The translations under genes were made by a program, and so were the position numbers. Positions 18,401-63,360 of a stretch of DNA of 64,000 nucleotides are shown here, one piece after another. The notes under the pieces were generated by a model. The model was not told the origin of the DNA and ran no database searches. It was given only the letters and a program-made list of their open reading frames with translations. Origin of the DNA: Mobula birostris (Eukaryota); contig NC_092370.1 in assembly GCF_030028105.1 (NCBI RefSeq), forward strand, positions 187,904,005 to 187,968,004, given 5' to 3'. The stretch's first letter is position 1. The number at the start of each line of letters is the position of its first letter.

Positions 18401-21400
18401 TCTCTCATGGTAGGTCAGCTCACAAAATAAAGATGCAAAGGATTGAAAGCGAATTGTAAATTTGGATTCAGAACTGACTCGTCCATTGGTGAGAGAGAAG
18501 GGGTGGAAGGCTGTTATTCTCACTCACGGGCTATGACTAACATTCCCAATGTTCACTACTGAAACCTCTTGTTTATGATGTACATCAACAATTTGGATGA
18601 AAATGTAAATAGATGGATGGATTAGAAAGTTTGTAGATGACACAAAGATTAGTGGAGTTGTGGACAGTGTAAAGAACTTTCCAAGAATAGAGAAGGATAT
18701 AGATCAGTTACAGATATGGACAAAGAAGTGGCAAATGAGAGTTTAATTTAAGCAGGTTGCGGCACCCCTCCTGCACGGAAAAGAAAAAGAAACAGAACTT
18801 GCAAAACCCAACCACTCCCTTGCACAAAAGCTAACAGATCACCCACCCGGACACGGCAGCTAAAACAGCTAATCCCCTTAGACCTTGAAAAGATTCATTA
18901 CTCACTTAATTCGGACATGAATTTCCAAAAGGGGACCTTTTCTTGAATATTTTCATAATTCCCATTTATATTAAGGGTTTATCCCTTTTTTTTTTCTTTT
19001 GCATTTAAATCCCTTACTCCCAGCTTCTTTCCGTTAAGACTTACTGTTTTTTTTATGTGTAAACATATAGCTCAGGTAGTAGGCAATATACCTTCTTTTT
19101 ATAAATACAGCTCTGTAGTGATAAAAGTTCTGATTAACTTTTCTATATATCGTAACGTTGCTTTTGGAGTTGGGTAGTGGGAGGGTGGGGTGGTAACTAA
19201 CTTTATACAATTCTACTATGGGTGCTTTTCCTTAACTGTTATGAACTGTACATTTGATATGTTTGTTTTGCACTGTACAGTATAAACCTCTTACTGTTTT
19301 TTTTGTTGCATTGTAGAAACTTATAAAAAAAATCATAAAAACAGCAAATCCCTAACCTCACCCCCAAATCCACTCCCACACAAAGAAAACAATACCATCA
19401 AACACCAACCCCCTCACCCAAAAAAAAAACCAAATGTATTGCACACTCGCTAATTGGCAAAAAGAAAGAAAACAAAAAAAAATGAAGGAGACCAATATCA
19501 ACCACAGTCCACACTGATAATCGCATACGACTTGGAATTTCAAAAACATCCCCCGCCCGGAACAATAAGAGCAACAGCTTGAACTCAGTCCTTCCATGGG
19601 GTATGACCTCCAGCCTGACGCAGCCTCCCGCAGAGAACGACATCCAGATCAGTTCCACAGTTCACTGAAAGTGGCTACGCAAGTGGATAAGATGGTAGAT
19701 GTGTATGGCACACCTGCCTTCATTCTTAAGCACGTTGTGTACAAAAGTAAAGTCACGCTACAAATATATAAAACTTTAATTAGAGCACATGTGGAGTATT
19801 GGATACAGTTCTAGTCACCCCATTATAGGAAGGATGTGGAGACAAAGTGTGCAAAATGCTGCCTGGATTAGAGTACAAGTTGTAAGGAAGAGTTGTACAA
19901 ACTTCAATCAGAATCAGGTTTAATATCACCAGCATATTTTGTGAAATTTGTTAACTTCGCGCCGGCAATGCAATGCAATACACGACAATATAGGGGGGAG
20001 AAAAAGGAAATCAGTTACAATAAATAATGTATATACACATATTAAATAGTTAATTAAAAGTAATGCAAAAACAGAAATAATATTTTGAAAAAGAGGTAGT
20101 GTTCAATCACAAACAAGAGAAAATCTGCAGATGCTGGAAATCCAAGCAACACACAAAATGCTGGAGCACCTCAGGCCAGACAGCGTCTATGGAAAAGAGT
20201 AAATGGTTGACGTTTCAGGCTGAGACCCTTCCTCAGGACCCTCGCACACCAGATAGCCTGTCAGAATGATCTCCAAGGTACATCTGAAGTTTGAGTGTTT
20301 AAGGTGACAAACTAAATCTTTTCAAATTCTGAATGAAATATAGCCACTATCAATTCTTCATTATAGCTGTATCAATATGTTGGGATCAGGTATGATTCTC
20401 AGAGATCTTGACACCCAAGAACTTGAAATTGCTCAATGGATCCCTCATGAGAATTGTTTAGTGTTCCCTCATCTTGCCCTTCAAGTCCACAGTCAGCTCT
20501 TTGGTCTTACTGATGTTGAGTGCAAGGTTGTTTCTGTGACTCCACTCAACTAGCTGGTACATCTTGGTCCTATATGCCTTGTCTCCATCTGAGATTCTAC
20601 CAACAATGGCTGTATCATCAGCAAATTTTTTAGACGGCATTTGAGCTGTAACTAGCCACACAGTTATGGGTATAGAGGAAGTAGAGCAATGGGCGCCAGT
20701 ATTGATTGTCAGCGAGGAGGAGATATTATTACCAATCCACTTCTGGTTAGGAAGTCAAGGGTCCAATTGCAGAGGGAGATAGAGGCCCAGGTTTCTGAAG
20801 CTTATCGATCAGGACTGTAGGAATGATGGTATTAAAGGCAAAGTATGGTCAAGAAAAAGCATCCTGACATAGGTGTTTGTATTGTCCAGGTGATCTAGGG
20901 CCATGTGAAGGGCCATTGAGATTGCATCTGCCGTAGACCTATTGTGGCAATAGGCAAATGGCAGTAGGTCCAAGTCCTTGTAGAAGCAGGAGTTCACTCT
21001 AGTCTTTTCGTCATTGTAGATGTGAGTGCTACTTGAATGGTTCTCCCTAGATCATTGGGGGCTGAAGTGAGAACTGATAGGGGTTTTTCAAATTATGACA
21101 GGATTGCTACCCGTACCACGTGCGAGTGAGGCTAGAAATAGGAAGATAATGCAGCTAAATATGTGGCTAAGGAGTTGGTGCAGGAGGGAGGGCTTCATGT
21201 TTCTGGACAATTGGGCCTTATTCCAGGGAAGCTGGGCCCTGTTCCGATGGGACAGGTTGCACCTGAACTGGAGGGGGACTAACATCCTTGCAGGAAAGTT
21301 TGCTAGTGCTGCTCTGGGGGGTTTAAACTAGATTTGCAGGGGGAGGGGAACCGGAGTGTTAGAGCTGATAGTGAGGTGGAGGAGGATAACGGTCAGGAGA

Positions 21401-24400: not shown

Positions 24401-27400
24401 TATATGGAGGAATTTAAGGTGGGGGGGTTAAATGGGAGGCGAGGTTTAAGGGTCAGCACAACATTGTAGGCCAGAGGGCCTGTACTGTTCTATGTTCTAT
24501 GACTAGCTTAGATAGAATTTCCCCCAGGTAAAATGTCAAACACCAGGTAGAAATGTCAAACACCAGAGGACAAACATTTCAGGGTTTGGGTGGTGGGGAG
24601 ACAGGAAGTTTAAAGGTGATGTGAGGGGCAAGTTTTCTTTTTACATGCAGGGAATATTAAGGTGCACAGAATAGATTACTGGGGTTGAAGTTTGGTGGTG
24701 TTTAAGCAGTTTTTAGAAAGACACACGAATATGAAGAGAATGGAGGAATATGGATAATACACAGCAGGAAGATACTTAGTTACAAATTGGCATCAAAATT
24801 GGCACATCATGAACGTAATCATGGCTTATCCAGTGCTGTACTGTTCTACATTGTCATAGTGAAAAGAAATGTAGGGAATTGCAATTCTCAGACTAACCTT
24901 TTTGTCCCTTTTTACATGATCCCAATTCTTCTTCATCTTCTGTGGCTGTATCACACCCACGATCTCTGTGTGCAGACTCCTGGCTTTCTGTGCTGGTGCT
25001 GAGCTCTTCCTGAGTTGTGTTCCGAATCATATCTTCTTCACTTTAGAAATAACTTATATTGACAAGCAAGCCAAGATATTCCCATAATAATTCAGTAATC
25101 CCTCCCACTAAATCTATGACTAGTCATATTCCACACCAAGTCAGGTTCCTTGGCCAGATCCCAACGTACCTTCAAATTGCTTTGATCAAGTTGATTAAAC
25201 AATACAACTTTATCTATGGTAATTTTTTTTGGTCTGGATAAAAAGAAACTGACTTGAATGGACAACAATTAGTTTATTTGCTGCTGTATGGCATCATTGC
25301 CTCTGTAACGATGACTGAAGTTTAAGTGACGAATACTTAAACTAAATAAGCATACAAATATAAACAAAAATTATACAGTAAATCTACATAGACCATGACA
25401 TCCTTCTTCTTGAAAGCAAAGTAGACCAAGAAACTCATCAAGGGGAGAATGAAATCAATGAACAGTCCAACAAAGAGACTGATTTGAGAGAACTAGATTT
25501 TGGTGAACAAGAGATAACTTCAGAATGCTGATCAAAAGCAGTGTTCTATCTTTTAAAATAAGAATGCAACAGCCAGCTAATATGGAACAATGCCACTTTA
25601 TCCACTGGTCCTGTGCCAAAATAGATGCCCAGGTAATCATTTTTGTCCTTCTTGCATTATTAGAAATGCAAATAAAACATTAAATGGAAGCCCCAGCTGC
25701 CTTTTCTGATGGCCAAAACCATATCTAAAGTTTGACTACAAGAAAGCTCTTCTGTCCCAACCTACATTCATTTCTTAGAAGTATTGGAAAGTAATCATGG
25801 CCTGCGAATTTGAAAGACTGTCATGTGACTGTTTTTTTAAAGTGATAAAACATCTAAAATAAATTTGTTCACTAGAATATTTCAAGATATTTAAGGTGCT
25901 ACATAAAATCCCATAACTTTGAAATCTATCCCATTATTCTATTTATTTAGGGTCCATATTTTTGCTCATTTCTGGTTTGGCAATGTTGCCAGCTCATCAA
26001 TCGCACAACTTTGGTAAAGGTGATTAAATCAAACCCTCTAAGTTACCAATACGTTACTGATGAAAACATTTTACATTTCTTCACAATAAAGAACACATTT
26101 GCCAGCTTTTTTGGGCTTCCTATAGAGGTCCAATTTATTCTCGGCTAACAATTCAGTCTTCCAGACTAACAGACGACTGATGCTACAATCTGGAATAAAC
26201 AAAATGTTAGAAGAACTAAGTGGATCAGTTAGCAACTGGGGAGCCAAAAGATGAAAGTTAACATTTTAAGTTGAGACCTTGCATCAGGACTGAATAGGGT
26301 CTTGACTTGCACTTTTTGCTTCCACACATGCTAACTGATCCAATGTGCTCTTCAGCATTCTTTTTTTAAAACCTGACTTCCTCCCAAATCATATTAGGAT
26401 GGAGTTGAAGACACATAACAAACTGGAAGAATATGGCCCACCTATGAAAATGAGGATTGATTACGATGATAGACCAAAGAAACAGAAAAAGTAGATTTCC
26501 TTCTGCATTCAAAATAAAACCACTCCCTTGAACTTGTTGCTTGGGTTACAGCTGAAATGAGAGTATGTCTGAAGAACCAAAAAGAAACAATTCTTCACAG
26601 AATAGGGAAGCCAGATAACAATTTTAAATATCGGGGGAATTTGAAAACACACAATATGATTGAACAAACAAGTTAAAAGAAAATAAAGAAGATTTTTGAA
26701 CTATGTTAAAGAACTTGCTATCCAAGCGCCATGATAATCTGTGTAGAAGCATTGCTTAGAGTGGTGAAAAGTAGCAAATTTGTATAAAAATTTGAAAGGC
26801 ATGGCAGAAGATAACTATCAAGATTATATGCTTAGACCATCAAAACATAGAGGAACCGTCACTAACTTGCACCGATAATCCTGTAATTTCAGTCTCTGAG
26901 GTTCAAATGGGGTACCTGTCCAAATAGACCTGTGCCCTATCAACTGACTGAAGTATTCACTGAGACCTTTAACTTCTCACTTTGGTAGTCTGAGATACCC
27001 ACCTACCTCAAGCGGGCTTCAATTATACTGGTGCTTAAAGAACATGGTAACCCGCCACAATGGCCATCGCACAGAAGCACTTACATCCAAAGGGATGAAG
27101 TGTTTTGAGAGGTTGGTGATGAAACACATCAACACCTGTCTGAGCAGCAACTTGGATCCACTCCAATGTGCCTATTGGCACAAAAGTTCCACAGCACATG
27201 CCATCTCATTGATACTCCACTCAAATGGAACAGCTGGACAGTAAAGGTACATACATCAGAATACCCTACAACTACAGCTCGACATTCAATACCATCATTC
27301 CCTCAAAGCTAATCAATAAGCTTGAAGACCTTAGCCTCAATACCTCCTCATGCAATTGCATCCTCTATTTCCTTACATGCAGACCCTAACCTGTTTGGAT

Positions 27401-45400: not shown

Positions 45401-48400
45401 CGAACCTGAAGTAGTGAAATTGTTTTCCTTTCATTCCCAGCCATTGCTGGCATATCCAAGCCTGAATACTTTAAACCACAGCGAACAAAACAGTTTCGAA
45501 TTATTTTATTGGTTACTTCTCACCAACTATTCATGACAATTATTTAAAAACTGTTCGCTCTCAGCATGGTGCAGTATTTAATGAAGCTAGTTAGAAACTT
45601 TTCTGCAACAGTCTCCAGTCTTAATTAAGCAGTACAGTGTCCCAAATAAAGGGAATCCCAGGTATTTTTCCCCCAATTAGTTTTTGCTCTTTAAAAGTTG
45701 TTCCAAATAAGCAGCTGCTCCGATTAACCAATGGGCCTATTAACTAGAATTCACTGTATTGATTAGTGGGGAGTCATTAAAAACAATATCAAACACTAAC
45801 TTCTACCGTAGCATAAAAAGACCAACAGGCTCCAGGACAGCTTCTTCTACCAGGCCATCAGACTGATTAATTCACACTGACACAATTGTATTTTTAAGCT
45901 ATATTGACTGTTCTGTTGTATATCTTACTATACACAATATTGATTACAAATTACTATAATTTGCACATTCAGACTGACATGCAACATAAGGATTTTTACA
46001 CCTCATGTGAAGGATGTAAGAAACAAAGTCAATTCAATTCACAGAAATGAATTTAAGATATAAAAATGTCAGTCTTAAATTTATATTCCACAATTAACTA
46101 TGCATGCTACTTAATTATCAAGCAATTTGGAAACACTTGACCAAAACTAAGAAAGAGTCCAGAGACAGAAAGGATCAGCAACCCTGACCAGACAGGGCTC
46201 AAAACCCAACTGAATATAGCAACAGTTATCTGCATCAAAGTCAGCACAAAGATAAGGATGAAGGACAACAGGTGGATAATCTGCAAAAAGTAGTCAGTCA
46301 AGACACAATATACGTGAAAACCAGAGCTCCTTATGCCACTGAGACACAAAGATCAGTAGGATACACTTTCAATTTTTGTCTCTGCACTTTGGAGTTTAAA
46401 CACCCAAAGAATTAGAATTAGTCTAAGAAATACATGAGAATTAAGGATCAAGGATCAATGGTCTAAGATGTGAGAAGATCGGCTATTACGTCTAGGGAGA
46501 TGAAAGAATGGGAGGCTATCTCCTGCAGATGATTTCATGAAGAGTATGGAACAGTAGACATCCCTGCAGTGAGTCAAAAGAGATGCTAACATTATTGCAA
46601 TTTATTCACCATCTTTGTTGACATCACTAAACCTTTTGAGGTTTGTTTGAGGTCCTATGGAAGGTCACTGCAAGGTTGTCCTGAAATACTGACAATTGTC
46701 CAACAACGTCATGACAAACAATGGCCAGAGTACTGGATGATTGAGTCTTCAGACCCAGTTCTGGTCACCAATGACATGAAACAAGCTTGCATGACAGCTT
46801 AAACATATGAAATCTCTACTTAGAATACTTCACATCAAGTGACAAAACAAGGTATCAGATAGATTCTGAACAATGCTCACCACAATATACACACTACAGA
46901 AAGAATCACAGATCAAATAGTCAGAAGAATGGCTGATGACAGAATATCAAAGAAACTACTTTACGGAGTACTGACTGAGAGCGAACAATCAAGTGGTAGA
47001 CAGAAAAAGATTCAAAGACTCTCTTGGAAGAATTTCAACACTGTCATATACCACTGAGAACAAGCAGCACTGGATTGCCCTTTTTGAATATCTGCATAAA
47101 AAAGTGCTTGCACATATGAGGAAAGTAGGAAAGAGAAAGCAAACCAGAAAAGGGAATCTCAGAAAACAATAACCATTGATGCTACAGCATCCCACACCTT
47201 TGTCATTTGTGTGAAAGGAGCTTCCAGGATCAGACTGCTCCAATCAGTCATCTTCATCGCAACACCGCAGACCAAATGTCATAGTCTTACTTGAGAAGGG
47301 ACCAACAAGATTTCTGGTACCAGACCAATTCCCAGGATAAAAGGACGATGACAGTCTAGGCTTAAAGGGCTATATGGCCTACTACAGCTAATTCTATGAA
47401 TTTATGATGGAGATTAACAGGGCAGATAACAGGAGGCTATTTCCTCCAAATAGATAATAAAGGGGTACAATTACAAAAGGATCTGCCATTTATTACTGAA
47501 ATTAGGACAAATATCTTTATACAGAGATACAAATCTTTGGCATCCCTCATCTCAAAGTTGCAAATACTTTGTCATTGAACGTAAAAAATCTGAGATCAAC
47601 AGACATCTAGGTTTAAAAATTGAATCAGATGGCTGTCTAGAAGCAGAGACACAAGATTAAGGCAGGGACCTTATGGTTTACCCCTGCTTCTGTAAATGTT
47701 CAATATTGTTTTAAGTCACTTGAAACCAGTTTGCACACAATTCCAATGTAAAATTCAATAGCATGAAATTTAAAAATCAGATAACCAAGCAAAAAATATA
47801 TTTTCAGAAACTACAGCAGCATCTTTAAATCCCAAATACTTCATTCAACAATGCAAAACGAGGAAATCTACAGATGCTGGAATTTCAAGCAACACATAAA
47901 AATTGCTGGTGAACACAGCAGGCCAGGCAGCATCTCTAGGAAGAGGTACAGTCAATGTTTCCGGCTGAGACCCTTCGTCCTAAGGTTCTTGATACTCACA
48001 TTTGTTAATGAAGAACAGTTCTTCGGAATCCTTACTCGCCCTTTGTTAGAACCCAAGGTAAATGTTGATAGATCATCCGGAAACAAATGTAAGAAGTTCT
48101 GCTCTGAAAGCTTGTATTTATCTATTGTTGTAGACTGAATAAAAGCAAAGACATTGGAATTAAATGTACCCATAAGCTGAACCATGTACAACACAAGCAA
48201 CCTTTTTCTCTCAACTGAATATAACCAAATGTATTTTAAATATGCTCTTAGTGAAAAGACATTTGAACTGGATTTTAGAAAAAGAATTTCTGGATAACAT
48301 AATTAATCCTCAAAACTTGGAATTGGTAAAGCATGCACAATATACTTATTGACAATCAAGGATGACCTAGCATGGTTAGGAACGAGAGATAAAGATCATT

Positions 48401-54400: not shown

Positions 54401-57400
54401 AAAAATGAGAAACAGCTTCAAAAACATAACTTAAAGCAACAAGAATCTCTACATAAAGTGGGAGAAAAGAAATTTCAGCTGCAAGATTATGGAATTAAAT
54501 GGCCAAACTAAAAATAAATGAATGAAATTAATAGAAAAAAAATGAAGTAAAGAGTTGAAAGAAAGTGGGCTATTCAACTGGTTTAAATTATTCACATCAA
54601 ACCATTGCTGTTTCCACACAAGAGATTAGTAATTATTCTAATCTCTCACCACATTATGATGCTTCTCAACTATCTTATTTATAACCTAGCAGTGCCAGTA
54701 GAACAGACTAAAGACACAAATTAGTCTATCTAGGTGCAATGTAAAGATTTACCCAATTGATGGAGAAGCTGTCGAGACTTTGGATTGTTCCTCAATGTCA
54801 CTTTCATCACTAATGACAATTACAACATCTTCAGTTCTGTTACTTATGTGTCCATTAGCAGTCCCATTTAGCATCGGTGGGGTCAGAACTTCCAAAACCT
54901 TACATGTTTGCCTACAAAAAAAAAAAATTTCAATTGAATCCAAAAAAAAAAAAGAGAAACTTTTCATCAAATACAGCTAATGAAAACTTAACATAGGCTA
55001 GCTGGATTTGAATAACTGCCCAAATATTTGGCACTTCATTTGTTTTTGAATCCAGAAATACAAATTTTAAATGGTACTCCAAACATATGCAGTTCTTTTA
55101 AAGAAAATGTTCGAGTCATTTTCATGAGGAATCATTTAAGCTTATACATCTCGATTCTGTCAATGGCATACAATGTACATTCATTACTCGTGTAAGTGTG
55201 CTCTAAACACAAACTGTCAAACACTACAATCTCAACATCAAAATGCAGGTGCTCTTAAAGTCTTCAACAATATACTCACAGGGAAAATGTGCAGTTCTGC
55301 ACATGTGTTGGAACACACCACCCCAAACCCTTTCCTTCTATTGGGATGGGGTTGTTTAAAAAAAAGTTCCATCTACTTAATCTGAAAATTACTGTTTTCA
55401 TTTACTACTGAGAATATAGACATTAACTTCAAAGTCTGCATTTACTGTATGTCTGATTAAAGTCTGACTTAATAAATACATTATAATCAATGTAAACTAA
55501 ATATTTATGTTCCATTGCTTCTGCCCTTTAAGACTGTAAGGGAAAAAATGGTCAAATATCTGAGAAAATGGGGAAACCAACTTCAAAATCATGTTCTTAT
55601 TTCTGGGATGAAGAGTATACAAAAATGCAGACTTGCATTTTTAAAAAAAGCATCTTTCACATCTGTAGGATGCCCTCTGGCATTTACAGCTAGTATGCTA
55701 CTTAAATATTGGCATGACAATACAGCAACTAACTCACTTGAGTGACTCTGGGACTTGCAATGAGACCTGTAACCAATTAATTTGCTTTGGTGTTATTGGT
55801 GGTAGATCAAATGCTAGGCAAGGTACAACTTGTTTTCATTTGACTGAAACTAGCAAAGTATCACTTTCAAATGCAAAGTTAAAGCCTTAAAAAGCTGCAC
55901 TCATTCAGTATGGTATCAAAATAACTCATGGAATCATTTTGGAGTGGGACTTGAACTTCTGACTTTCTTACTCAGTAAAGCAAAACAGCACCCTGATCCC
56001 TTGACATTGCAGATCCATTTGTACTGTCATTCACTTCACTATGCGTACAAGTTAACATACTTTAATTGTGGTAGCAAAGGGCAAAAAGAACCTGTAGCAA
56101 GTAATATTAAAAAAAAACAGCACTATGCTTTGCTGAAAATTGCCATCAGGTAAAAGGATACACTACTGTGCAATCCAGCTTAATGAAAAAGCAATGTTGT
56201 CAAATTCATATGTAAACATCGTTAAATTGATCAAGGTAACATCTATAGCAGGGATTCCCAACCCGGGGTCCATGGACCCCTTGGTATAGGTCCATGGCCC
56301 ACAAAAGGCTGGGAACCCCGGTCTGTAGCATCACAGTGCAGGAAGTAATACATTGAGAATTGGGAGTAAAAACAGGAAAAGTTAACTTGTGACACACCAC
56401 TTAGAAATACAAATCCATCCCAAGTGCTTTTGCGACAAGTATTGGAAAAAGTGTGCAGTTTTGAGGACGTCAAAGAAAAAATATTCAGTGGACCACAATG
56501 TAAGATGGCAGAGGAATGCAAAGAGTTATCCCTTTCAAAGTGCTAATATTTTATATTACATCAATACCTGAGACCATTAAGACCAGTTACTTCTACTATC
56601 TCTCCTGCAAAGTATCGATGTTGCGTATACACGTAGAGATCTTCACAGAGCTCATGGAGTCGTGAGCAATAGGAAAGTGACGCTAAGTAAAGGATGGGCA
56701 TCACCAGTGGATCAGGGAAATTTTGAAGATTCTGTCTGGCCTTGGCTTCCGACTCAACTGCTTCCTGGTAAGTTAGCCCTGGCTTTCCTGTAATGGCACA
56801 GCTCCAGACCAGACTGTTGCAAAGTATGGTTCTTTCAAAAAAGTCACTGCAAAGAAAAAAAAAGCGGTGTTAAGTAGGGAAGTTCCTTGGCGTTATCTTT
56901 TCAGTGGACCTATCTTGGGACCACACACAAGTCCCATTACAAGGATGGCACTATAGCACCTCACTTTCTTAGAAGTTTGTGCAGATTCGGCATGTCATCT
57001 AAAACTTTGGCAAACTCCCATAGATGCACAGTGGAGAGTATCCTGACCTGTTGCATCACTGCCTGGTAGGGAAATATTAATGCCCAAGACCAGAAAAGCC
57101 TACAAAATGTAGTAGATACAGCCCTACCACAGACCACACCTACAAGGAGAACTGTTGCAGGAAAGAGGCATCCCTCAAAGATCCCCACCATCCAGTTTAT
57201 GCTCTCTTCTCACTGCAGCCATTAGGGAGGTGTTACAGAAGACTCAGGACCCACAAGTTCAGGAACAATTATTACCTCGCAATCAGGCTCTTGAACAAGA
57301 AGGGATAACTTCACTCACTCCAACACTGAACTGATCCCACAAACTATAGACTCATTTTCAAGGACTCAGTATTATTTTATTTTTCTCTTATGTACTTGGA

Positions 57401-60400
57401 CTTTTTTTTTGCCTTTTGCATTGTTTTTTTGTCCATCTTTCTTTGGGTACAGTTTTTCATTGATCCTATTTCTTTGTATCTACCGTGAATAGTCCACAAG
57501 AAAATGAATCTCAGGTTTGTATATTGTGACATATTCATATTTTCATAATAAATTTACTTTGAATTTCGAGGTATAAAATACAGTGAATTTAGTTACACTT
57601 CTGCTCTTACTTTTCTCCCCACTTACAAACCCCAGAACTAAGGGAGTCCCTTTGTTCACATTTCTACCCACAAAGGCTCACAATTATTACAACGACATTT
57701 ACAATTTCCAGCATCTTAGAATCATGTTTAATATCACTAACGTATGTCGTAAAATTTGTTGTCTGTGACGTCTTTACATCCTTTCAGCATCCTGAAGTAT
57801 CATCCCCTCAGTTGCTCTAGTTTACTCTTCCTTCACTATCAATATGTATGGCATTTCCTAAAACATCTCATTACGCAGGCACAGGAGATACAATGCTACC
57901 CTTTTAAATCTTCACTTCTTACACATCCAGCACCAAGTATTTTTATGGGAAGTAGCAATTTTCACTTCTGATTTAATATAGCTCGTAACTATGGGAAAAG
58001 TAAGTGCACTTTAAATAGCTCAAATATGTTCGCAGGCTCATTGTTACGATTCTCCTTTAGATTACAGTCCAATCTCTCTGAGTTCTGATACAGTTCTACA
58101 AATTCCAATGCAAATTTGTGGACCAGTACGATTTCTTCCAAAAAATATCTAAAAGCTTCAGGACCCAGTAGAAGTTCAATAATCACATCCAGAATTCCTT
58201 TTAATCATGAAAATGGCCAGTCTACATCTAACTCCTTCAAACTAACCTTTTATTTCCTCTTTTGTGCTATTACTGCTTAATTTCATTCAAATTGGTCATT
58301 TACTGTCTCTCACCATTTCACAAACTCTTCCACAAATCTGCAACTATACCCAGTTCTGATGAAAATACACCCATCTAAAATTGAAACAACTTATCTAAAG
58401 ATGCACATGACCTGCTGAGTATCTAGCATGTTCGTTCTAAATTTTAGATTAGTATAAATGGCATCTTAGTTTCATTTCATATTAGAGGAATGAAATGAAC
58501 TTTAATCTGTTACAAGTAGTTTATGATGTAGATGCTAATTAGATGGGACCAGACAAATACACAAGTGATGTCATTAATTGAAAAATTGAGTGCAAGCAAT
58601 TTCTGACAATCTCAGATATATTTAAAATTCATCCTGAATTGCAAAAATATAGTTTTCTCCACTAAAAGTATAAAGCACACTTCCACATTAAACACACACC
58701 AACTTTTACGAAGATGCTTTTATGCAGTGACATCTTATTCTTTCTATAATAAGCAACTAACAGACAGCCAATGAAATTGCAACCCAAAATAAAGCAAAAC
58801 TATTGTCACATTTAACTGCAGATCACTTTTAGTATAGAATCTGCAGGAATGCAAATGATATTCAGTTTAAGCTTTTTTTGCACTGTACAGAAGATTACAG
58901 GTCTCAGCAACAGTAAACGAAAGGAATCCTTCAAGACAGTTTTAAGATTTAAATGGAGGTCCACAGACAATTTGTTAGTACAAATATTTGAAATTATTGT
59001 CACATGTTGTATTCACTATCAATGCTATCAAGGGGATGAGAATTAACAACAGAAGAGCAATCCTTTTTCTGTGAAAGGGAACTTGGCCTCCATTTTTAGT
59101 GCTTGCCAACAATGACATGGGTGTGACTCACTCTCATTCGATAGAAAGATCACCAGCACAGATACTTCCTAAAGGACTGTCAGGGAACATCTGAAGCCAT
59201 CAACAGGGGTTAAAAATGATACAAAATCAAGTGAAAGGCTTATACTGCTGCACAAAGAGACCCATCTCCTGAGAATTATGAGAGAAAAAGAATCAGAATT
59301 CAACTGAGGACCAAGGCAATCCCAAAAATTTGGCATCAATGAAACAAATGAGAGTAAAAAGGAAAAAACAAACAAGACTTGATAATATCCCCTTTGCCAA
59401 TCACCTGTCCAGCTCTTGGCTCCATCCCTCCCCCTCCTGTCTTCTCTTATCATTTTGGATCTCCCCCTCCCAAATCTCTTACTAACTCTTCCTTCAGTTA
59501 GTCCTGACGAAGGGTCTCGGCCTGAAACGTCGACTGTACCTCTTCCTAGAGATGCTGTCTGGCCTGCTGCGTTCACCAGCAACTTTGATGTGTGAGGACT
59601 TGATAACTAGTATCCTAGTGCTTAAAGTGGATCCACTAATTATCACCTACCAAAATTACACAAATTCAAGAATGGTTCTCACCGAGATGAAGGAAGCAAA
59701 TACATCCTCTAGAGTTATAGAAGGAAAAGAAAACAGGCAGCTACAGAAGTGTTAAGGTGAGACAGGCATTGATGGAACTATACACATGTTGATTTGTTTT
59801 GAGATTGCAATTAGCAGAATTGTTCAGAGTGAACCAGTTGAAATGGCATTCCAACCACCAGAAAAAAAATGAATAAAGTGATGAACATTAGATTATTAAA
59901 CAAAACTAGAGCACAATTTTGGGGGTAATATACTGGCATGGACTGAGGCTAGGTTAATGGAAAAATCTGGCCTCCCCACATCCCATAATCTTGGGTGCTT
60001 TAATGACAAATTATTTAATGTTCAAATAGGGCCATCTTGCCAACCCTGTCTTCTCAGTCTTAATTAGTCATTCTTGAAGGAATAACTGAATCATTTCCAG
60101 ATTGGAAGGCTATGATCAGTGGGGTACTACTGGGATCTAATCTGGACTACTACTCATAACACAGAAGATATAAAGCCAGCTGGAAGAATGGACTATTAGC
60201 ACAATGTTAAAATGTGTTGAAGGGATATAGGCAGTTGAAGAGCAAGTAAATGACAAGTAAAATGTGGAAAAGTTGAATGTCATCCATTCTAACAGAGAAA
60301 AAAGATCTTATGAAAGTGCGAGAGTAAAAGGTATTACCTTTAAATAGACCTGGCATCTCTACAGGAATCACTGAAATTTAACATGTAGACAGAGCAAGTA

Positions 60401-62446
60401 ATTAGTAAGACAAATGGTATGTTTGTTAATATTGCAAAAGACTTTCAGCACAAGAACAGATGTCTCATCTCTTTTTAATGCAAGTCTTTCATACAACTCT
60501 ATCCAAAAATGAAGGTCTGACATCCTCATCTGTTTACTTGTGATTGAATGAGTGCAACTGAAATTCACCATATTGATTTAAGAGATTGTAGGTTTGTTGC
60601 ACAGAGATTTAACTGACTGCAGTACAGTATATTCTGAGTTTAATAAAACAAGAGGGATTCTTTTCGGATTTCAGAAGGTTAACGTTGATTTGATGTCTTT
60701 GATGTTGATGTTTCTCTTGACAGAGCAAGTTTAGAATCACGGTAACACTCAAAATAAGCAATAGCCATTTATAAAGGGAACAAATTTTAGGAGGCCCATG
60801 ATTCAGTGCAAAGTACGTTCAAAAGATCATTATGTTTTGAAGATACAAGTGAATCAAAGGATTAAGGGGTCGGTAGGAAAACTGTGTGGAGGTACAGAAC
60901 AGTCTTAAGCTTAGAGAATGGAAAAGGCAGAGTCAAATAAGCTGCTCCTACTTCCATTTCTTACAAGTTAATGGATGAGATTTCCTAGTCTTTGGATGGA
61001 CAATCACCCGGCACAGATTGTGGAACAGTGCAATTGCACACCAGGGTGGATATGGTACAATATTCATTAAATATTTATAATTTAAAGTGTGGTTGACCAG
61101 TAAATTCATCATTAACTGGGGGGGGCAACAATCTGCTTACATGATGGCAAGAAACTGGTATCAACAAATAATCCATATTACTTGTTTTTAAATTTTGCAG
61201 GTGTTAATCTTCACATATTCTATCAAGTTCATTCCTTGAAAAGTGATCATTTGATTCCCATCTACAAATGTCAACAGGTCAAACTGAAACACATTTTCTA
61301 AAAAGAACCTTCTTAACTACTTAAATAAAAGCAAATTTCGACATAAATGGGCAGTAATCTCAAAGTTTATCAGCATCCATACAACAATTAAGCCTTCAAT
61401 GCGATGAATACAAAATTGTCAGTGGTGCTGCCCACTAAATATAAAAAACTTGCAAAACTTAGAAAAGACAAGATTCCAATTAAGGAACTCCTAGGCTTTT
61501 TAAAAAAATCTAGTCACTCCAAGAGGTTATTTTAGATCAAGTCTTTTAATATACCATTTTGTGACCATTTCCATTAGCCTTTCCTCTTCTATCGTCTATC
61601 TTAGCGGTAATAAGTGAATCATTTTTAAGGCAAACAAATCGTGGTTGTTATATTGTCTTTAAAAAAAATTCACGAACTAGGTCTTCGACATCTTAAAATG
61701 ACACTATGAAAATAACTTTCAGTATTGCTGCATAGAGATGAGCAGTCTCTGGCTCTCTAAACTAGGCCCATTACTGAGTCCTTGTACAAAAGAGGCAATT
61801 CGGATAACCACCAAAACAACCCACGCTCTCCACATGTCGCCCAGAAACTCAAGTTGTCCCTCCGCGTTAGAGGATTATCCAAAATGAAGCTCTGACCTGG
61901 CACAATGTAAACCAGAGAATTGAGGACCAAGCCACGTTTGGCTTGGCGCAAATTCGTTCAGAACTTAGTGAATGCGCGCATATAGAGAAGGGAGAAAAAA
62001 GCAGACATCATGGTATATGAATAAATTTACATGATCCGACAGTACAAGGCCTACTCACAACCGACACGAGTTTATTACCACTTAAGAAACACCCGGGTTT
62101 TGTCGAGCCTAGGACACGGCGGCCGTGGGAGAGGTTGCTCACTAAACCCCGTGCCGTTAACGTAGATTTCGAACCATTATTTGTTGATTTAAACAATAAT
62201 AATAAGTACGGCCGCGTAAGGGGCTAGAAAGGCAGCGCTAGTATCCCCAGCCATCCGACCCGCGGTTATCAGCCAGAGCATCTGCGCGGAAGAAAGTTTA
62301 GCGACCGGTTGACGAGGTGAAATCGCAACTCACTCGTAACTCCTGAAGATTTCCCTGGTCACCCGACAGTAGAAAACTTCTTCGTCCGGCTTCAGGTCGG
62401 ACGGCGGCTTTCGTCTGACGAACGGCTTACGGTGGAGGAGCGGCAT
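327..62446 (-). CDS. BAZ1A: Bromodomain adjacent to zinc finger domain protein 1A (ACF1); 5' 21 coding exons, 3' end outside window
   Basis: Manual splicing of 21 GT-AG exons gives one stop-free frame with consistent phases (3583 nt). It starts [27 protein letters not shown] and matches recalled human BAZ1A throughout (WAC, DDT, WHIM motifs). Confidence 0.97.
708..1376. mobile_element. Non-autonomous DNA transposon with CAGACATCCCACC TIRs and 6-bp TSD (copy 1)
   Basis: TIRs cagacatcccacc / ggtggcatgtctg; ATATCA at 702-707 and 1377-1382; an internal extra right end finishes at 800; contains a CT-rich tract at ~1050-1272. Confidence 0.8.
2840..2988 (-). CDS. BAZ1A: BAZ1A coding exon 20
   Basis: ttttgtgcag| [49 protein letters not shown] |gttagt; 149 nt. 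Confidence 0.94.
5030..5220 (-). CDS. BAZ1A: BAZ1A coding exon 19
   Basis: tatgagcag| [21 protein letters not shown]...KENGVIKIE...NKA |gtataa; 191 nt. Confidence 0.9.
5760..6070 (+). mobile_element. PLE-related hammerhead repeat, decayed copy
   Basis: Same layout as 59386-59596; cagtaCTGATGAcgggtttcagactGAAAtgttgact at 5946-5982. Confidence 0.65.
6550..7020 (+). mobile_element. Rex1/Babar-type LINE 3' fragment
   Basis: Homologous to 56880-57565 and to the 3' end of 26930-27930; tail aataaatttactttgaacttgaact. Confidence 0.6.
7510..7676 (-). CDS. BAZ1A: BAZ1A coding exon 18
   Basis: aatttccag| DKTLLESKP...[29 protein letters not shown] |gtatgt; 167 nt. Confidence 0.95.
8250..8520 (+). mobile_element. 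Degenerate V-SINE/HE1-like SINE
   Basis: Decayed V-domain-like blocks (gtacatgttctc..., caaagacttg..ttggtagttaattg..aaattccccctagtgtg), recalled from shark/ray HE1. Confidence 0.5.
9050..15085 (+). mobile_element. Old near-full-length CR1 LINE (ORF1 esterase plus ORF2 APE-RT remnants), split by a younger CR1
   Basis: ORF1 remnant at 9130-9690 resumes at 12061 (gttaggtgct|aagttcaagggcagg). Decayed EN/RT with [16 protein letters not shown] and FADD motifs in ORF 13918..14427. CR1-type 3' end at ~15085. Confidence 0.85.
9691..12060 (+). mobile_element. Young 5'-truncated CR1 LINE (ORF2 RT)
   Basis: 447-aa ORF 9898..11241 with [46 protein letters not shown]; ends in (TTCTATGG)2. Confidence 0.95.
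15144..15863 (-). CDS. BAZ1A: BAZ1A coding exon 17 (WHIM2/WHIM3, WSD region)
   Basis: cctatag| [14 protein letters not shown]...[25 protein letters not shown]...[35 protein letters not shown]...FHIP |gtaatt; 720 nt; matches ORF 15124..15834. Confidence 0.96.
16424..17065 (-). mobile_element. Short non-autonomous retroelement (aagatggcg 5' end, ACTGA-repeat tail)
   Basis: Reverse strand starts ggggaagatggcggtgcgacg, retains CpGs, and ends aaaactgaactgaa; no coding ORF. Confidence 0.5.
17643..17722. mobile_element. hAT/Charlie-type mini-MITE
   Basis: CAGGGGTTCCCAACC...TTGGGAACCGTTG termini; interrupts the CR1 'VYMDF' segment; related to 56249-56320. Confidence 0.6.
17965..18270 (+). mobile_element. 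tRNA-derived SINE with CORE-like centre
   Basis: A box TGGCCAAGTGG, B box GTTCGAGCC, CORE-like gtccttgagcaaggcacttaacc; inverted second copy at 52351-52660; sits inside a Rex1-type 3' fragment (~17780-18385). Confidence 0.8.
18870..19335 (+). mobile_element. L1 3' end fragment
   Basis: ORF2 C-terminal LEKI-x-YS...GPF remnant, T-rich 3'UTR, A-rich tail at ~19325. Confidence 0.5.
19907..21030 (-). mobile_element. Rex1/Babar LINE fragment (RT), interrupted by the hammerhead repeat
   Basis: ORF remnants [17 protein letters not shown]...TYVRMLF and [16 protein letters not shown]; TTCTGA-like tail at 19907. Confidence 0.8.
20108..20240 (-). mobile_element. PLE-related hammerhead repeat fragment
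   Basis: Reverse strand reads ggtcCTGAGGAagggtctcagcctGAAACGTCaacc followed by the family tail. Confidence 0.7.
21098..24501 (+). mobile_element. CR1 LINE (ORF1 C-term plus full ORF2 with frameshifts/stops)
   Basis: DRLHLNWRG esterase end; EN and RT motifs in ORFs 21992..22951 and 23251..23694; (TTCTATG)2 tail. Confidence 0.93.
23952..24177. mobile_element. Solo-LTR-like insert (TGTA...TACA, 4-bp TSD)
   Basis: Cleanly interrupts the CR1 sequence gaggtatacaag|ttattaagag; CAAG duplicated at 23948-23951 and 24178-24181. Confidence 0.65.
24898..25040 (-). CDS. BAZ1A: BAZ1A coding exon 16
   Basis: tttctaaag| [48 protein letters not shown] |gttagt; 143 nt; phases 2-1 fit the neighbours. Confidence 0.87.
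26170..26360. repeat. Foldback (inverted) copy of the PLE-related repeat
   Basis: Two family halves in opposite orientation; perfect 14-bp IR TGGATCAGTTAGCA (26221-26234) / TGCTAACTGATCCA (26329-26342). Confidence 0.55.
26930..27930 (+). mobile_element. Rex1/Babar LINE RT remnant
   Basis: [48 protein letters not shown] motifs. Confidence 0.85.
27940..29690 (-). mobile_element. Decayed CR1 LINE
   Basis: ORF 27981..28373 (WAKKWQME...[13 protein letters not shown]) plus upstream EN remnants. Confidence 0.8.
29926..30030 (-). CDS. BAZ1A: BAZ1A coding exon 15
   Basis: cctggcag| [35 protein letters not shown] |gtaagt; 105 nt. Confidence 0.92.
30665..31170 (-). mobile_element. CR1 3' fragment
   Basis: Reverse-strand CR1 C-terminal/3'UTR remnant, similar to 51592-51890. 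Confidence 0.6.
31346..32203 (+). mobile_element. TcMar-Tigger non-autonomous element with MER2-like ends and truncated transposase HTH
   Basis: TA|CAGTTGGTCCTCCTTATCCGC ... GCGGATAAGCAGGGCTACCTG|TA; internal [38 protein letters not shown] is a CENP-B/pogo N-terminal HTH. Confidence 0.85.
31958..32116. other. Assembly gap (159 N)
   Basis: Run of n. Confidence 1.
32727..32892 (-). CDS. BAZ1A: BAZ1A coding exon 14 (WHIM1 region)
   Basis: tttttgccag| [55 protein letters not shown] |gtatgg; 166 nt. Confidence 0.95.
33215..33439 (-). CDS. BAZ1A: BAZ1A coding exon 13
   Basis: ttgttgaag| [51 protein letters not shown]...VYDLTS |gtaacg; 225 nt. Confidence 0.95.
33537..33623 (-). CDS. BAZ1A: BAZ1A coding exon 12 (probable cassette exon)
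   Basis: aattcacag| [29 protein letters not shown] |gtcctt; 87 nt, phase 1-1, weak donor. Confidence 0.88.
34694..34840 (-). CDS. BAZ1A: BAZ1A coding exon 11 (DDT domain C-half)
   Basis: aattcacag| [49 protein letters not shown] |gttaga; 147 nt. Confidence 0.95.
34884..35936 (-). mobile_element. 5'-truncated L1 LINE with 11-bp TSD
   Basis: ORF2 C-term (C..C........MFWSCP knuckle; [10 protein letters not shown]...LEKIR...WKPFI), AATAAA plus A-rich tail; AGCAATTTCTC at 34873-34883 and 35937-35947. Confidence 0.9.
37136..37274 (-). CDS. BAZ1A: BAZ1A coding exon 10 (DDT domain)
   Basis: aatccatag| [46 protein letters not shown] |gtaatt; 139 nt. Confidence 0.96.
38439..39065. mobile_element. 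Same 6-bp-TSD DNA transposon family (copy 2)
   Basis: Ends tagacatcctacc / ggtggaatggctg; GCATTA at 38433-38438 and 39066-39071; shares a ~170-bp internal block with copy 1. Confidence 0.8.
39522..39617 (-). CDS. BAZ1A: BAZ1A coding exon 9
   Basis: aaaacag| [32 protein letters not shown] |gtagct; 96 nt. Confidence 0.95.
40002..40183 (-). CDS. BAZ1A: BAZ1A coding exon 8 (charged coiled coil)
   Basis: cctctgaaag| [61 protein letters not shown] |gtaatg; the AAG acceptor is less certain. Confidence 0.88.
40840..40945 (-). CDS. BAZ1A: BAZ1A coding exon 7
   Basis: ttattctctag| [35 protein letters not shown] |gtaaac; 106 nt; phases 0-1 bridge the flanking exons. Confidence 0.85.
41712..42647 (+). 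CDS. CR1 ORF1p (Zn finger, coiled coil, SGNH/GDSL esterase), 311 aa, open
   Basis: CSRC...[14 protein letters not shown] coil, [26 protein letters not shown]; no stops. Confidence 0.88.
   Translation: MSVRAACCSRCQMWEVVESPSLPDVHTCARCAEMQLLGDCIRELELQLDDLRLVRESEELMERSYRQVVTLGPQEADKWVTARRGKRKSQVIESTLVAVPFDNRYSCLSTVGGDSLPGGSNSGCASGTESGPVAQQGRERKRRAVVIGDSIVRGSDRQFCVRSRETRMVACLPGARVRDISDRVQDILKWEGEKPEVVVHIGANDLGRKRGEVLKGEYRELGRELRKRTAKVVISGLLPVLRDSESRNAMRWRINAWLRDWSKGQGFKFLDHWDLFWRRCDLYKKDGLHLNPRGTNILAGRFARATEVTLN
43496..43679. mobile_element. One end of a Tigger/mariner-type DNA transposon
   Basis: TA|CAGGTGTCCCCC terminus; no partner TIR; joined directly to the CR1 RT segment. Confidence 0.55.
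44985..45756. mobile_element. TcMar-Tigger-like non-autonomous element
   Basis: Imperfect TIRs (t)agtggattccagttagttggacca / tgggcctattaactagaattcactg|TA. Confidence 0.65.
45800..46042 (+). mobile_element. Rex1-type LINE 3' tail
   Basis: [16 protein letters not shown]-terminal motif; tail aaagtcaattcaattca. Confidence 0.55.
46500..47310 (+). mobile_element. Decayed RTE (BovB-like) LINE
   Basis: FVD.TK.F and [15 protein letters not shown]...GRQKK.F remnants characteristic of the RTE ORF. Confidence 0.65.
47852..47980 (-). mobile_element. PLE-related hammerhead repeat fragment, truncated inside the ribozyme core
   Basis: Reverse complement closely matches 59506-59594, but the core reads gGACGA (CU missing) and GAAACAUU. 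Confidence 0.7.
48000..48134 (-). CDS. BAZ1A: BAZ1A coding exon 6
   Basis: ttttattcag| [45 protein letters not shown] |gtgagt; 135 nt. Confidence 0.92.
48524..48727 (-). mobile_element. tRNA-derived SINE
   Basis: Reverse strand starts gctggcTGGTGGTGTAGTGG (A box)...GGTTTGAATCC (B box) and ends aacaaca. Confidence 0.7.
49665..51005 (-). mobile_element. 5'-truncated CR1 LINE (same subfamily as 21098-24501)
   Basis: Reverse ORFs 50592..50903, 50261..50497 and 49908..50219 with RT motifs; TTCTATG tail. Confidence 0.93.
51072..51159 (-). CDS. BAZ1A: BAZ1A coding exon 5
   Basis: cttttaccag| [29 protein letters not shown] |gtaaga; 88 nt. Confidence 0.94.
51440..52120. mobile_element. Two CR1 3' fragments tail-to-tail
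   Basis: Plus-strand 3' end (gggccaaagagcctgtttctgtgct) abuts a minus-strand 3' end (ORF 51636..51941 RGHGLRIEG...[11 protein letters not shown]). Confidence 0.6.
52351..52660 (-). mobile_element. tRNA-derived CORE-like SINE (second copy)
   Basis: Reverse complement of 17965-18270; CTGCACTG direct repeat at 52339-52346 and 52661-52668. Confidence 0.8.
52876..52971 (-). CDS. BAZ1A: BAZ1A coding exon 4
   Basis: tttttgcag| [31 protein letters not shown] |gtgagt; 96 nt. Confidence 0.92.
54753..54911 (-). CDS. BAZ1A: BAZ1A coding exon 3
   Basis: tttttgtag| [38 protein letters not shown]...SPSI |gtaaat; 159 nt, phase 2-2. Confidence 0.92.
55630..55990 (-). mobile_element. Degenerate SacSINE1/DeuSINE-like element
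   Basis: acttgcattt... tail and ggagtgggacttgaac..ctgact..ctcag head (B box GTTCAAGTCC on the minus strand), matching a recalled shark DeuSINE. Confidence 0.5.
56249..56320. mobile_element. hAT/Charlie-type 72-bp mini-MITE
   Basis: CAGGGATTCCCAACC / GGCTGGGAACCCCG termini; 8-bp TSD ATCTATAG/GTCTGTAG (6/8 match). Confidence 0.7.
56568..56846 (-). CDS. BAZ1A: BAZ1A coding exon 2 (WAC domain)
   Basis: ttctttgcag| [54 protein letters not shown]...[16 protein letters not shown] |gtattg; 279 nt. Confidence 0.96.
56880..57565 (+). mobile_element. Rex1/Babar LINE 3' fragment
   Basis: [15 protein letters not shown]...[14 protein letters not shown]; tail aataaatttactttgaa. Confidence 0.75.
59386..59596 (+). 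mobile_element. Short non-autonomous Penelope-like (PLE)-related repeat carrying the hammerhead
   Basis: Pyrimidine-rich 5' part, hammerhead, then GATGCTG..CCTGCTG tail. Flanked by the 10-bp direct repeat GACTTGATAA (59376-59385 and 59597-59606). Confidence 0.75.
59499..59536 (+). ncRNA. Minimal type I hammerhead ribozyme motif
   Basis: UAGUC-CUGACGA-AGGGUCUCGGCCU-GAAAC-GUC^GACUG. Stem I is UAGUC/GACUG, the CUGANGA and GAAA core boxes are present, stem II is closed, stem III is the palindrome ACGU, and the GUC cleavage triplet ends at 59531. Confidence 0.75.
59780..60965 (+). mobile_element. Very old CR1-like LINE remnant
   Basis: Scattered collinear RT/3' pieces (ggggtaatatactggcatgga; cagtggggtac..ctgggatc; ctgctcctact tail). 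Confidence 0.4.
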
Positions 62447-63360
62447 CTCCTCGTTAGACAGGCAGAGCTGTCAGAGAAGGAGGGAAGAACAAAGAGAGAA
62501 TAATATAGAGAGGGGGGAAAACACAAAATAAAATCGGCGCCCGGAGCCGCAGCCCGAGAGCAGGGAGCCCGCACCCGGCCGGCAACGTCTAACCGGCCAG
62601 GAAACTTCACCACCAAACTTAATCGTCGCCGGCGCCGTTCGATCCATCACTGGGGCGCCGCGGCTCCCTGTCGCCGGCAGCACGGCCGAATCCGGAGTCA
62701 AGCGAGGCAGACAATGTGCTCGGCAGTCGCGGTTCCGCGGTGTCGGCACGGCCGCACCAAACGCGGAACAAGTCGCGCCAAGTGTCTCCCAACGAACACC
62801 TGGCCGGTGCCGGACGTTTCACCGCCGTCCGACTTACAGGAGTTGGTGGTGACCGACTCAGTGACCACCACCGGCTGCCTGGTCAGCGCTCGCCGTACCT
62901 GCTCAGTTGCCAAACGCTTCCTTTCCTTTCCGTTCCTTCCCCGCCCGCCGAGCCGCAGCCTCTGCCGCCTCCTTCACTCACTCCGACGCTCGCTTCCCTA
63001 CCCAACCCAACCCAACCCCCTCCCCTCCCGTGACGCCGCCTGCGCACGTACGTCATAAAGGGGGGCAGAACCCACACGCCAATACTTCTCTTCCCATTGG
63101 CCGCGCCGGTGAAGAGGAACGAGTACAGCTCGCTGTCTCGTGCTGTGACGTCGCGTGTGACTGGGATCTGCGCTGGTCGCAGGGCGCTGTGCGCTCGGCC
63201 AAGTGTTCGCTGCTCACTTCGTTCCTTCCTTCCAACGTGGTCTTTTCACATTGTGCGCACTTTGAATTGCTGCCGCTTGGAGCCTTCTTCAGCTGTGACG
63301 GATCCAATTACAGCGCGAGCCTTGCTCGAACTTTTTTTTCCCATTCAACTTGCCGCCGGA
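62040..63360. promoter_or_regulatory. CpG island / BAZ1A promoter and non-coding first exon region
   Basis: Sharp rise in GC and CpG over the CpG-depleted background, spanning the ATG exon. GC box at 62941-62946; CCAAT boxes at 63079-63083 (+) and 63096-63100 (-); CRE-like TGACGTCG at 63146-63153. Candidate minus-strand 5'UTR donors after 62838 (CCT|gtaagt) and 62899 (CAG|gtacgg). Confidence 0.85.
62334..62446 (-). CDS. BAZ1A: BAZ1A coding exon 1 (start codon, WAC N-term)
   Basis: gaggagATG CCG CTC CTC CAC...; [37 protein letters not shown](D); donor GA|gtgagt. A polypyrimidine tract plus CAG acceptor puts the exon 5' edge at 62467. Confidence 0.95.

Follow-up and report, generated by a model that had tools for sequence, protein, structure and literature searches.

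A hammerhead-bearing repeat in a BAZ1A-like gene of Mobula birostris, probably a solo terminal repeat of a Penelope-like element

The inserted unit and its ribozyme motif

The window analysed here (64,000 nucleotides of Mobula birostris contig NC_092370.1, positions 187,904,005 to 187,968,004; all coordinates below are those of the window) is vertebrate DNA with remnants of CR1-type LINEs (long interspersed nuclear elements) and, on its minus strand, a BAZ1A-like gene comprising an exon for the WAC domain (PF10537, E 3.6e-25) and further same-strand exons with WHIM1 and WSD domains. An inserted unit carrying a minimal hammerhead ribozyme motif lies in the intron upstream of the WAC-domain exon, antisense to the gene and about 3 kb from its first coding exon (Table 1). 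Judging from its sequence, this unit is probably a solo pseudo-long terminal repeat (pLTR) of a Penelope-like element (PLE), truncated at its 5' end and devoid of the tail, a reading to which we assign a probability of about 0.8.

Table 1. Features of the inserted unit, its host intron and the related copies in the window
Feature	Position	Strand	Basis or remark
Intron of the BAZ1A-like gene, phase 2, between the first coding exon (open reading frame 62330-62470) and the WAC-domain exon (open reading frame 56561-56869)	56561..62470	-	
Left copy of the target-site duplication, 10 bp	59376..59385	+	sequence
Inserted unit, copy of an abundant terminal repeat (likely a PLE pLTR) lacking its 5' part and the tail	59386..59596	+	
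Predicted acceptor end (3') of a pLTR intron, with a branch-point-like word, a pyrimidine tract and a CAG that abuts stem I	59480..59497	+	sequence only
Donor-like site, predicted exon end 59487, GT at 59486-59485	59481..59489	-	matches the block end in 15 of 17 protein models
Type I hammerhead in minimal form, cleavage predicted after C59531	59499..59536	+	sequence, descriptor, folding
Region 3' of the ribozyme, up to the limit of family similarity	59537..59594	+	
Right copy of the target-site duplication	59597..59606	+	sequence
Family copy starting inside the hammerhead core, tail present, core broken	47852..47979	-	91% identity over 88 bases
Family copy of another subfamily, starting at stem I, tail present, stem I broken	20112..20241	-	
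Older copy: long pyrimidine-rich 5' part, decayed hammerhead (5946-5985), tail	~5760..6062	+	
Two decayed copies, head to head, inverted	26200..26365	.	E 2.3e-4 and 3.7e-3, weak

The unit is bounded by a target-site duplication (TSD) of 10 bp, GACTTGATAA, as an earlier note on this DNA had claimed: the two copies are exact, the word occurs nowhere else in the window, and such a duplication was found near both ends in 105 of 200,000 random placements of a 211-bp unit. Two bases without any family match (59595-59596) directly precede the right copy, and the flanks of the unit are unique (depth 7-14 in the public contigs described below). Compared with the majority of its family, the focal copy carries a 12-base deletion near 59471 and a single private substitution (59558), which, as far as sequence can tell, makes it young but not new. 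It also lacks a tail of about 37 bases, by which all three other clear copies in the window run past its end.

The sequence abutting stem I resembles an intron end, i.e. the predicted acceptor of a pLTR intron for which the unit holds no donor; within this stretch, position 59485 differs in about half of the family depth. The word TCAGT (59494-59498), which overlaps the CAG, is initiator-like. A transcript start just before stem I is possible.

The complete minimal type I hammerhead proposed earlier is present with all its boxes and stems, i.e. a stem I of 5 bp (59499-59503/59532-59536), the boxes CUGACGA (59504-59510) and GAAA (59524-59527), the palindrome ACGU without a loop 3 (59527-59530) and C17 at 59531. 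Stem II had likewise been recognised, but is better drawn with A59511 unpaired and four pairs thereafter (59512-15/59520-23; -7.0 vs -5.6 kcal/mol), including a G.U wobble at 10.1-11.1. A strict hammerhead descriptor matched once in the window, at the focal copy, and not at all in 60 Markov-simulated 64-kb sequences, both strands being searched. Neither the TSD nor the hammerhead is a product of chance.

Searches with Rfam returned no match at gathering level over the whole 64 kb and, at E<=10 over 59350-59650, three chance matches but no hammerhead family; since Rfam holds no model of this minimal form, the result is not informative either way. The exact ribozyme pattern was found in no metagenome contig and in no viral contig, while a match in a bacterial metagenome-assembled genome (L001:6001-6023) was rejected as chance, being only the 23-base pattern with no flanking similarity.

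Folding predictions for the single copy do not favour the active structure. In the lowest-energy monomer fold the core bases 59506-09 pair with 59528-31, and in the fold of the whole 211-nt RNA the probability of stem I is near zero; the best structure of two strands is a non-hammerhead duplex, which is uninformative on a tandem transcript. The core GACG (59506-59509) is perfectly complementary to CGUC (59528-59531), which comprises stem III bases and the cut site. In such models, the stable inactive fold of the monomer could possibly represent a built-in off state.

A large family of dispersed copies

Of the related copies listed earlier, those at 47852, 20108 and 5760 are clear, the last being found at E 9e-9 by a profile built without it. 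The one at ~26170 resolves into two weak inverted halves, and the distant variant at ~58350 falls away, with no profile match at E<=10 and a best pairwise score equalled by 26 of 1500 random pieces. The window thus holds four clear copies plus one decayed inverted pair, in place of the five to six copies per 64 kb previously counted. Only the focal copy gives a complete descriptor match, and start points vary among the copies, two of which start at or inside the ribozyme. Window copies at 20241, 47979 and 26290 seem to start at the 5' edge of the ribozyme.

Part of the unit was present in 21 of the 24 public runs listed, originating from ten studies. We aligned the contigs of runs X1 (organism A) and X4 (organism B) to positions 59150-59849, which yielded 49,324 and 95,237 contigs, respectively, with a depth of 7-14 in the flanks and a summed depth of 1.5-17 million inside the unit, whereby contig counts and depth ratios are not copy numbers. 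The ratio of depth at the ribozyme to that in the flank is about 1.3 million in both runs and about 42,000 after division by the word length of 31 bases, which are crude bounds. The family probably comprises at least tens of thousands of copies, and the earlier expectation of a very large family is thereby borne out.

These contigs also show where the family ends. Upstream of 59386 the shared family sequence continues in 105 and 171 contigs (agreement 0.77 and 0.81), which marks the left end of the focal unit as a truncation point; past 59594, about nine more bases are common to the family before its sequences diverge (505 and 630 contigs, agreement 0.46). The idea of a discrete 211-bp non-autonomous element is therefore not supported, given this upstream continuation, the different starts and ends of other copies and the private 12-base deletion, while the other half of the earlier reading, i.e. 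that an insertion by retrotransposition brought in a minimal hammerhead of PLE type, is retained. Subfamilies diverge from the focal copy just outside the ribozyme, with loose ends at 59500 (605 and 655 contigs, long, unlike each other, agreement 0.39) and 59537 (457 and 462 contigs), and depth peaks over the ribozyme itself. Three opposite-strand joints were found among the joints listed (15 of 26).

A few contigs of X1 and X4 return from 59534-59538 to 59500-59501, i.e. they carry head-to-tail duplications of the hammerhead only, with a period of about 35-40 bases. If read correctly from sequence, these would be natural dimers, present at low depth and at a handful of loci.

In both organisms, contigs span the unique flank, the TSD and 27-29 bases of the unit on each side, narrowly missing a bridging rule of 31 bases, and none of the joints listed (15 of 26) skips the unit. 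The flanks match the window exactly in X1, possibly the source of the window, and differ at 6 of 469 sites (1.3%) in X4. Since the insertion is common to organisms A and B, it predates their split. Its description as recently mobile applies only loosely, given that both junctions occur in a second organism whose flanks differ to this extent.

When contigs with at least 85% similarity are compared, the motif varies by CpG transitions (6-13% per base, equally in core, stem and loop) and by a U/C change at 11.1 that keeps the pair (G10.1-C11.1 is G-C in 37% and 32% of the family depth). At the CpG positions of the core, 6-12% of the family depth is changed, as at the loop CpG, and therefore the intact core is explained by youth, not by selection; to judge from these sequences, the genomic copies are decaying neutrally. 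One CpG (59508-59509) departs from this pattern, C7>U reaching 16% against 6-7% for G8>A, while the three other motif CpGs are near-symmetric (9-13%). Parent elements that retain G8 but are free to vary at position 7 would produce such an asymmetry, which may thus be a hint of selection in these parents.

Elsewhere in the window, a long CR1-type LINE (41658-44200, +) consists of an ORF1 with a GDSL esterase (PF13472, E 4e-15) followed by endonuclease and reverse transcriptase (RT) pieces, and further CR1 remnants lie at 9865-11887, 13888-14427 and 21992-24469. A CENP-B-type helix-turn-helix (31486-31683, +; PF04218 and PF13384) is probably a remnant of a DNA transposon, and 31958-32116 is an assembly gap of 159 N.

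Origin of the unit

Minimal hammerheads in the terminal repeats of PLEs were described in PMC4209133, according to which most are single motifs, probably from truncated PLEs. The hallmarks given there are large consensus families with compensatory changes, an unpaired base 9/10.1, a palindromic 15.2-16.2 and a G10.1-C11.1 pair. Three of these four are seen here, the first of them as regards family size, i.e. the large family, the extra base and the palindrome, whereas the fourth pair is a G.U in the focal ray copy. The type I topology without loop 3, the short helix I, the dispersal of the family and the intron-end-like sequence abutting helix I are shared as well, the last having the same layout as in D. 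virilis Penelope, where the same paper places an intron end at helix I.

The insertion itself points in the same direction. In PMC8557442 and PMC3846280, endonuclease-positive PLE units are described with 5' truncation, an optional tail of 30-40 bp, adjacent inverted copies, solo pLTRs and TSDs of 8-10 bp, the latter two in PMC3846280. Correspondingly, we found 5' truncation, a tail of about 37 bases in three of the four clear copies, the 10-bp TSD of the focal copy and, as inverted copies, the pair at 26200-26365 (with its weak E values) together with the opposite-strand joints. With such PLEs, among them Poseidon of Anolis (PMC11167929), the ray unit also shares an AT-rich target and a 3' end located about 65-100 bases past the ribozyme cut site; the Anolis element has a start codon in stem II, which the ray unit lacks. 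Endonuclease-positive PLEs join a gene for RT and the GIY-YIG endonuclease to the terminal repeat, while no such gene could be linked to the ray family here.

Several observations weigh against a Penelope-like origin. The three other clear copies have no evident TSD, and no empty site was seen, the TSD being deduced from sequence alone. Covariation among the five window copies does not exceed that of shuffles, and two-sided stem changes all stay below 3% of the family depth. Helix II has 4 bp in the ray copy vs 6-8 bp in the Schistosoma and Drosophila examples of PMC4209133. Protein searches with the translations of the unit returned no PLE protein, only host gene models, with P0002 and P0004 being low-complexity chance matches. 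Finally, Pfam detected neither a GIY-YIG nor a PLE-type RT domain in 290 non-CR1 open reading frames of at least 55 residues (of 366 in the window, 75 CR1-like ones being excluded and one scanned separately), a set from which shorter or broken remnants escape; this absence is expected for a solo fragment.

Alternatively, the unit could derive by truncation from the monomer of a dedicated non-autonomous element, i.e. a non-LTR retrozyme or a derivative of a pLTR resembling a short interspersed nuclear element (SINE), mobilised by a PLE enzyme in trans and possibly via circular RNA. Animal non-LTR retrozymes (PMC7229834; bioRxiv 10.64898/2026.07.22.740005) share with it a short non-coding unit, a type I hammerhead needing a dimer, a TSD of more than 4 bp and kinship to pLTRs, and the preprint reports families averaging 363 bp in one chondrichthyan genome and pLTR-related ones in Xenopus. 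The very high copy number, the absence of any coding sequence seen and the many copies whose start appears to coincide with the ribozyme's 5' edge (59500, where agreement is only 0.39) would suit such an element. However, retrozymes form tandem arrays of a fixed unit with a canonical ribozyme and circular RNA, whereas the ray unit has unfixed ends and a minimal ribozyme, the 211-bp ends are not family ends, and no joint leads from the 3' end of the unit back to its 5' end among the joints listed (15 of 26). At this locus the retrozyme reading, raised in the earlier note, fails because there is no tandem array. In addition, both the optional tail and the inverted pair belong to the anatomy of PLE insertions, and a SINE-like head of tRNA or 5S type is missing (no match at E<=10 over 59350-59650). 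We therefore regard this alternative as unlikely.

Very unlikely is that a non-PLE repeat, e.g. a SINE driven by the common CR1-type LINEs of the window, carries a hammerhead-like motif by accident: the missing Rfam match, a folding energy that is unremarkable by itself (z -1.24) and the lack of covariation in five copies would fit, but none of the 60 simulated windows gave a descriptor match, the unit has no similarity to the CR1 copies of the window, and the A9.1 bulge, the tail, the inverted pair and the G8/C7 asymmetry fit PLE hammerheads beyond what the descriptor needs.

If the unit is indeed a solo pLTR, its parent element would first have been transcribed. PMC11167929 reports that RT starts at two internal sites, which define the tail, and that AT-rich targets are preferred; following this work, the GIY-YIG endonuclease would have nicked AT-rich DNA and RT would have started inside the RNA, a start at the inner of the two regions giving a copy without the 30-40-base tail. 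As read from the structure, copying then halted after 211 bases and left the 10-bp duplication, the likely route being target-primed reverse transcription. We set aside microhomology of the target with the RNA as the basis of priming, as starts without homology are reported in the same paper and a single junction is uninformative. The copy was in place before the divergence of organisms A and B and has acquired, since then, the substitution and the 12-base deletion that distinguish it from the family majority.

The role of hammerheads in PLEs is called unclear in PMC8557442. According to PMC4209133, minimal hammerheads do not cleave as monomers and cleave at a low level as dimers, PMC6765202 citing Lunse et al. 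on dimer cleavage, while in PMC11167929 the hammerhead cuts only with the protein of the element and is dispensable for insertion in vitro. Accordingly, cutting by the focal hammerhead is predicted to require a dimer or the protein of the element, and the hammerhead would matter, if at all, in the tandem RNA of the parent, via paired ACGU palindromes. The focal site offers no partner copy, and the pre-mRNA of the host gene, which reads the strand opposite to the unit, lacks the catalytic core. As a lone antisense copy from a family whose core decays at CpG sites as the loop nearby does, and with core bases sequestered in the predicted monomer fold, the hammerhead is probably inert at this site.

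Antisense blocks in Mobula gene models

The antisense translation of the unit matched 16 protein clusters among 233 candidates, and the block shared by these matched 17 among 42. This element-derived block is found in 17 clusters (P0005-P0021) representing 16 unrelated genes, all of them RefSeq models of two Mobula species. Since all convincing named protein matches to the translations of the unit come from Mobula hypostoma or M. birostris, the family can be placed in mobulid rays. The borders of the block are largely fixed: it starts at the same residue in 11 of the 17 clusters, at a point mapping to the end of the tail, and ends at the same residue in 15, mapping to the donor-like site 59487/59486. 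The full block of 46 residues (138 bases) is present in frame in 10 clusters from nine genes. In the MAGOH model it interrupts an otherwise continuous sequence, at what is presumably a native exon border. The matching stretch of the focal copy is 59487-59594 (-).

On the sense strand, the element was found in only two Mobula models (P0001, P0003), hammerhead included, with the sense and antisense searches being unmatched in sensitivity. One of these two models starts with the CAG that precedes stem I.

Recurring borders of this kind across unrelated genes would be expected from splicing into an antisense repeat. In primates, antisense Alu exonisation follows such a course, an intronic high-copy short repeat supplying both splice sites and thus cassette exons with recurring borders; in rays, the donor would be a PLE-type terminal repeat, known from gene models. 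The antisense blocks, as seen in database gene models, may thus reflect Alu-style exonisation, or else a systematic annotation artefact. Against the exon reading stand the limitation of the evidence to the gene models of two annotations and the sequence at the main acceptor, which lies about 8 bases from the element end, behind a purine-rich run and without a pyrimidine tract, so that such a tract would have to come from the flank.

At the focal locus, it is tempting to ask whether the copy itself is functional, be it as a ribozyme within RNA transcribed antisense to the BAZ1A-like gene or, from the opposite strand, as a poison exon. It is the only window copy with a complete core, lies close to the first coding exon, has been kept in two organisms and retains the donor-like site used in the Mobula gene models. 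However, most young copies of the family keep the core (each core CpG position being changed in 6-12%), the monomer is predicted to misfold, the tail with the main acceptor is absent, the pyrimidine tracts of candidate acceptors are weak (0.40-0.55), and the three length-compatible inclusions in this phase-2 intron all meet a stop. We thus consider a function at this locus highly improbable.

For the family as a whole, we tentatively propose, at somewhat short of even odds, that the PLE-type repeat of Mobula is an equivalent of Alu. It would supply a recurrent antisense cassette exon of 138 bases, with the acceptor at the end of the tail and the donor past the ribozyme, which would be in frame in phase-0 introns (full block in nine genes, all or part in 16) and a poison exon in the other two phases, reshaping the ray transcriptome. 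Regarding precedents, the titles and abstracts of the papers listed by searches of the open literature yielded no report of exonization of Penelope elements as recurrent exon donors, Repbase and Dfam being outside this scope, and the main text of a mobulid genome preprint (2026) makes no mention of exonisation terms, while PMC6546357 lists a Penelope sequence among exonised elements in locusts.

Hammerheads of this kind have been in print since 2014 (Cervera and de la Pena 2014, PMC4209133), and the focal copy itself is ordinary. What is added is the rays as a host of PLE-type minimal hammerheads, which we did not find named in the literature searched; cartilaginous fish are not named in the text read of PMC4209133 or in those of its supplements searched by term, while the preprint bioRxiv 10.64898/2026.07.22.740005 describes both retrozymes and PLEs from a single chondrichthyan and may list related motifs in its tables already. 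Coelacanth and Xenopus are quoted with 4,000-9,000 motifs, far fewer than the contigs counted in the ray, with the reservation that contigs are not copies. Owing to the size and youth of the family, start sites of reverse transcription could be mapped and selection on the ribozyme core could be tested from thousands of natural copies. If the exon reading is not true, the blocks would represent a systematic annotation artefact touching conserved genes (MAGOH, SUGT1, TIMM8A) in two reference proteomes; if it is true, the end piece of a PLE would repeatedly have donated exons in a vertebrate, as Alu is best known to do.

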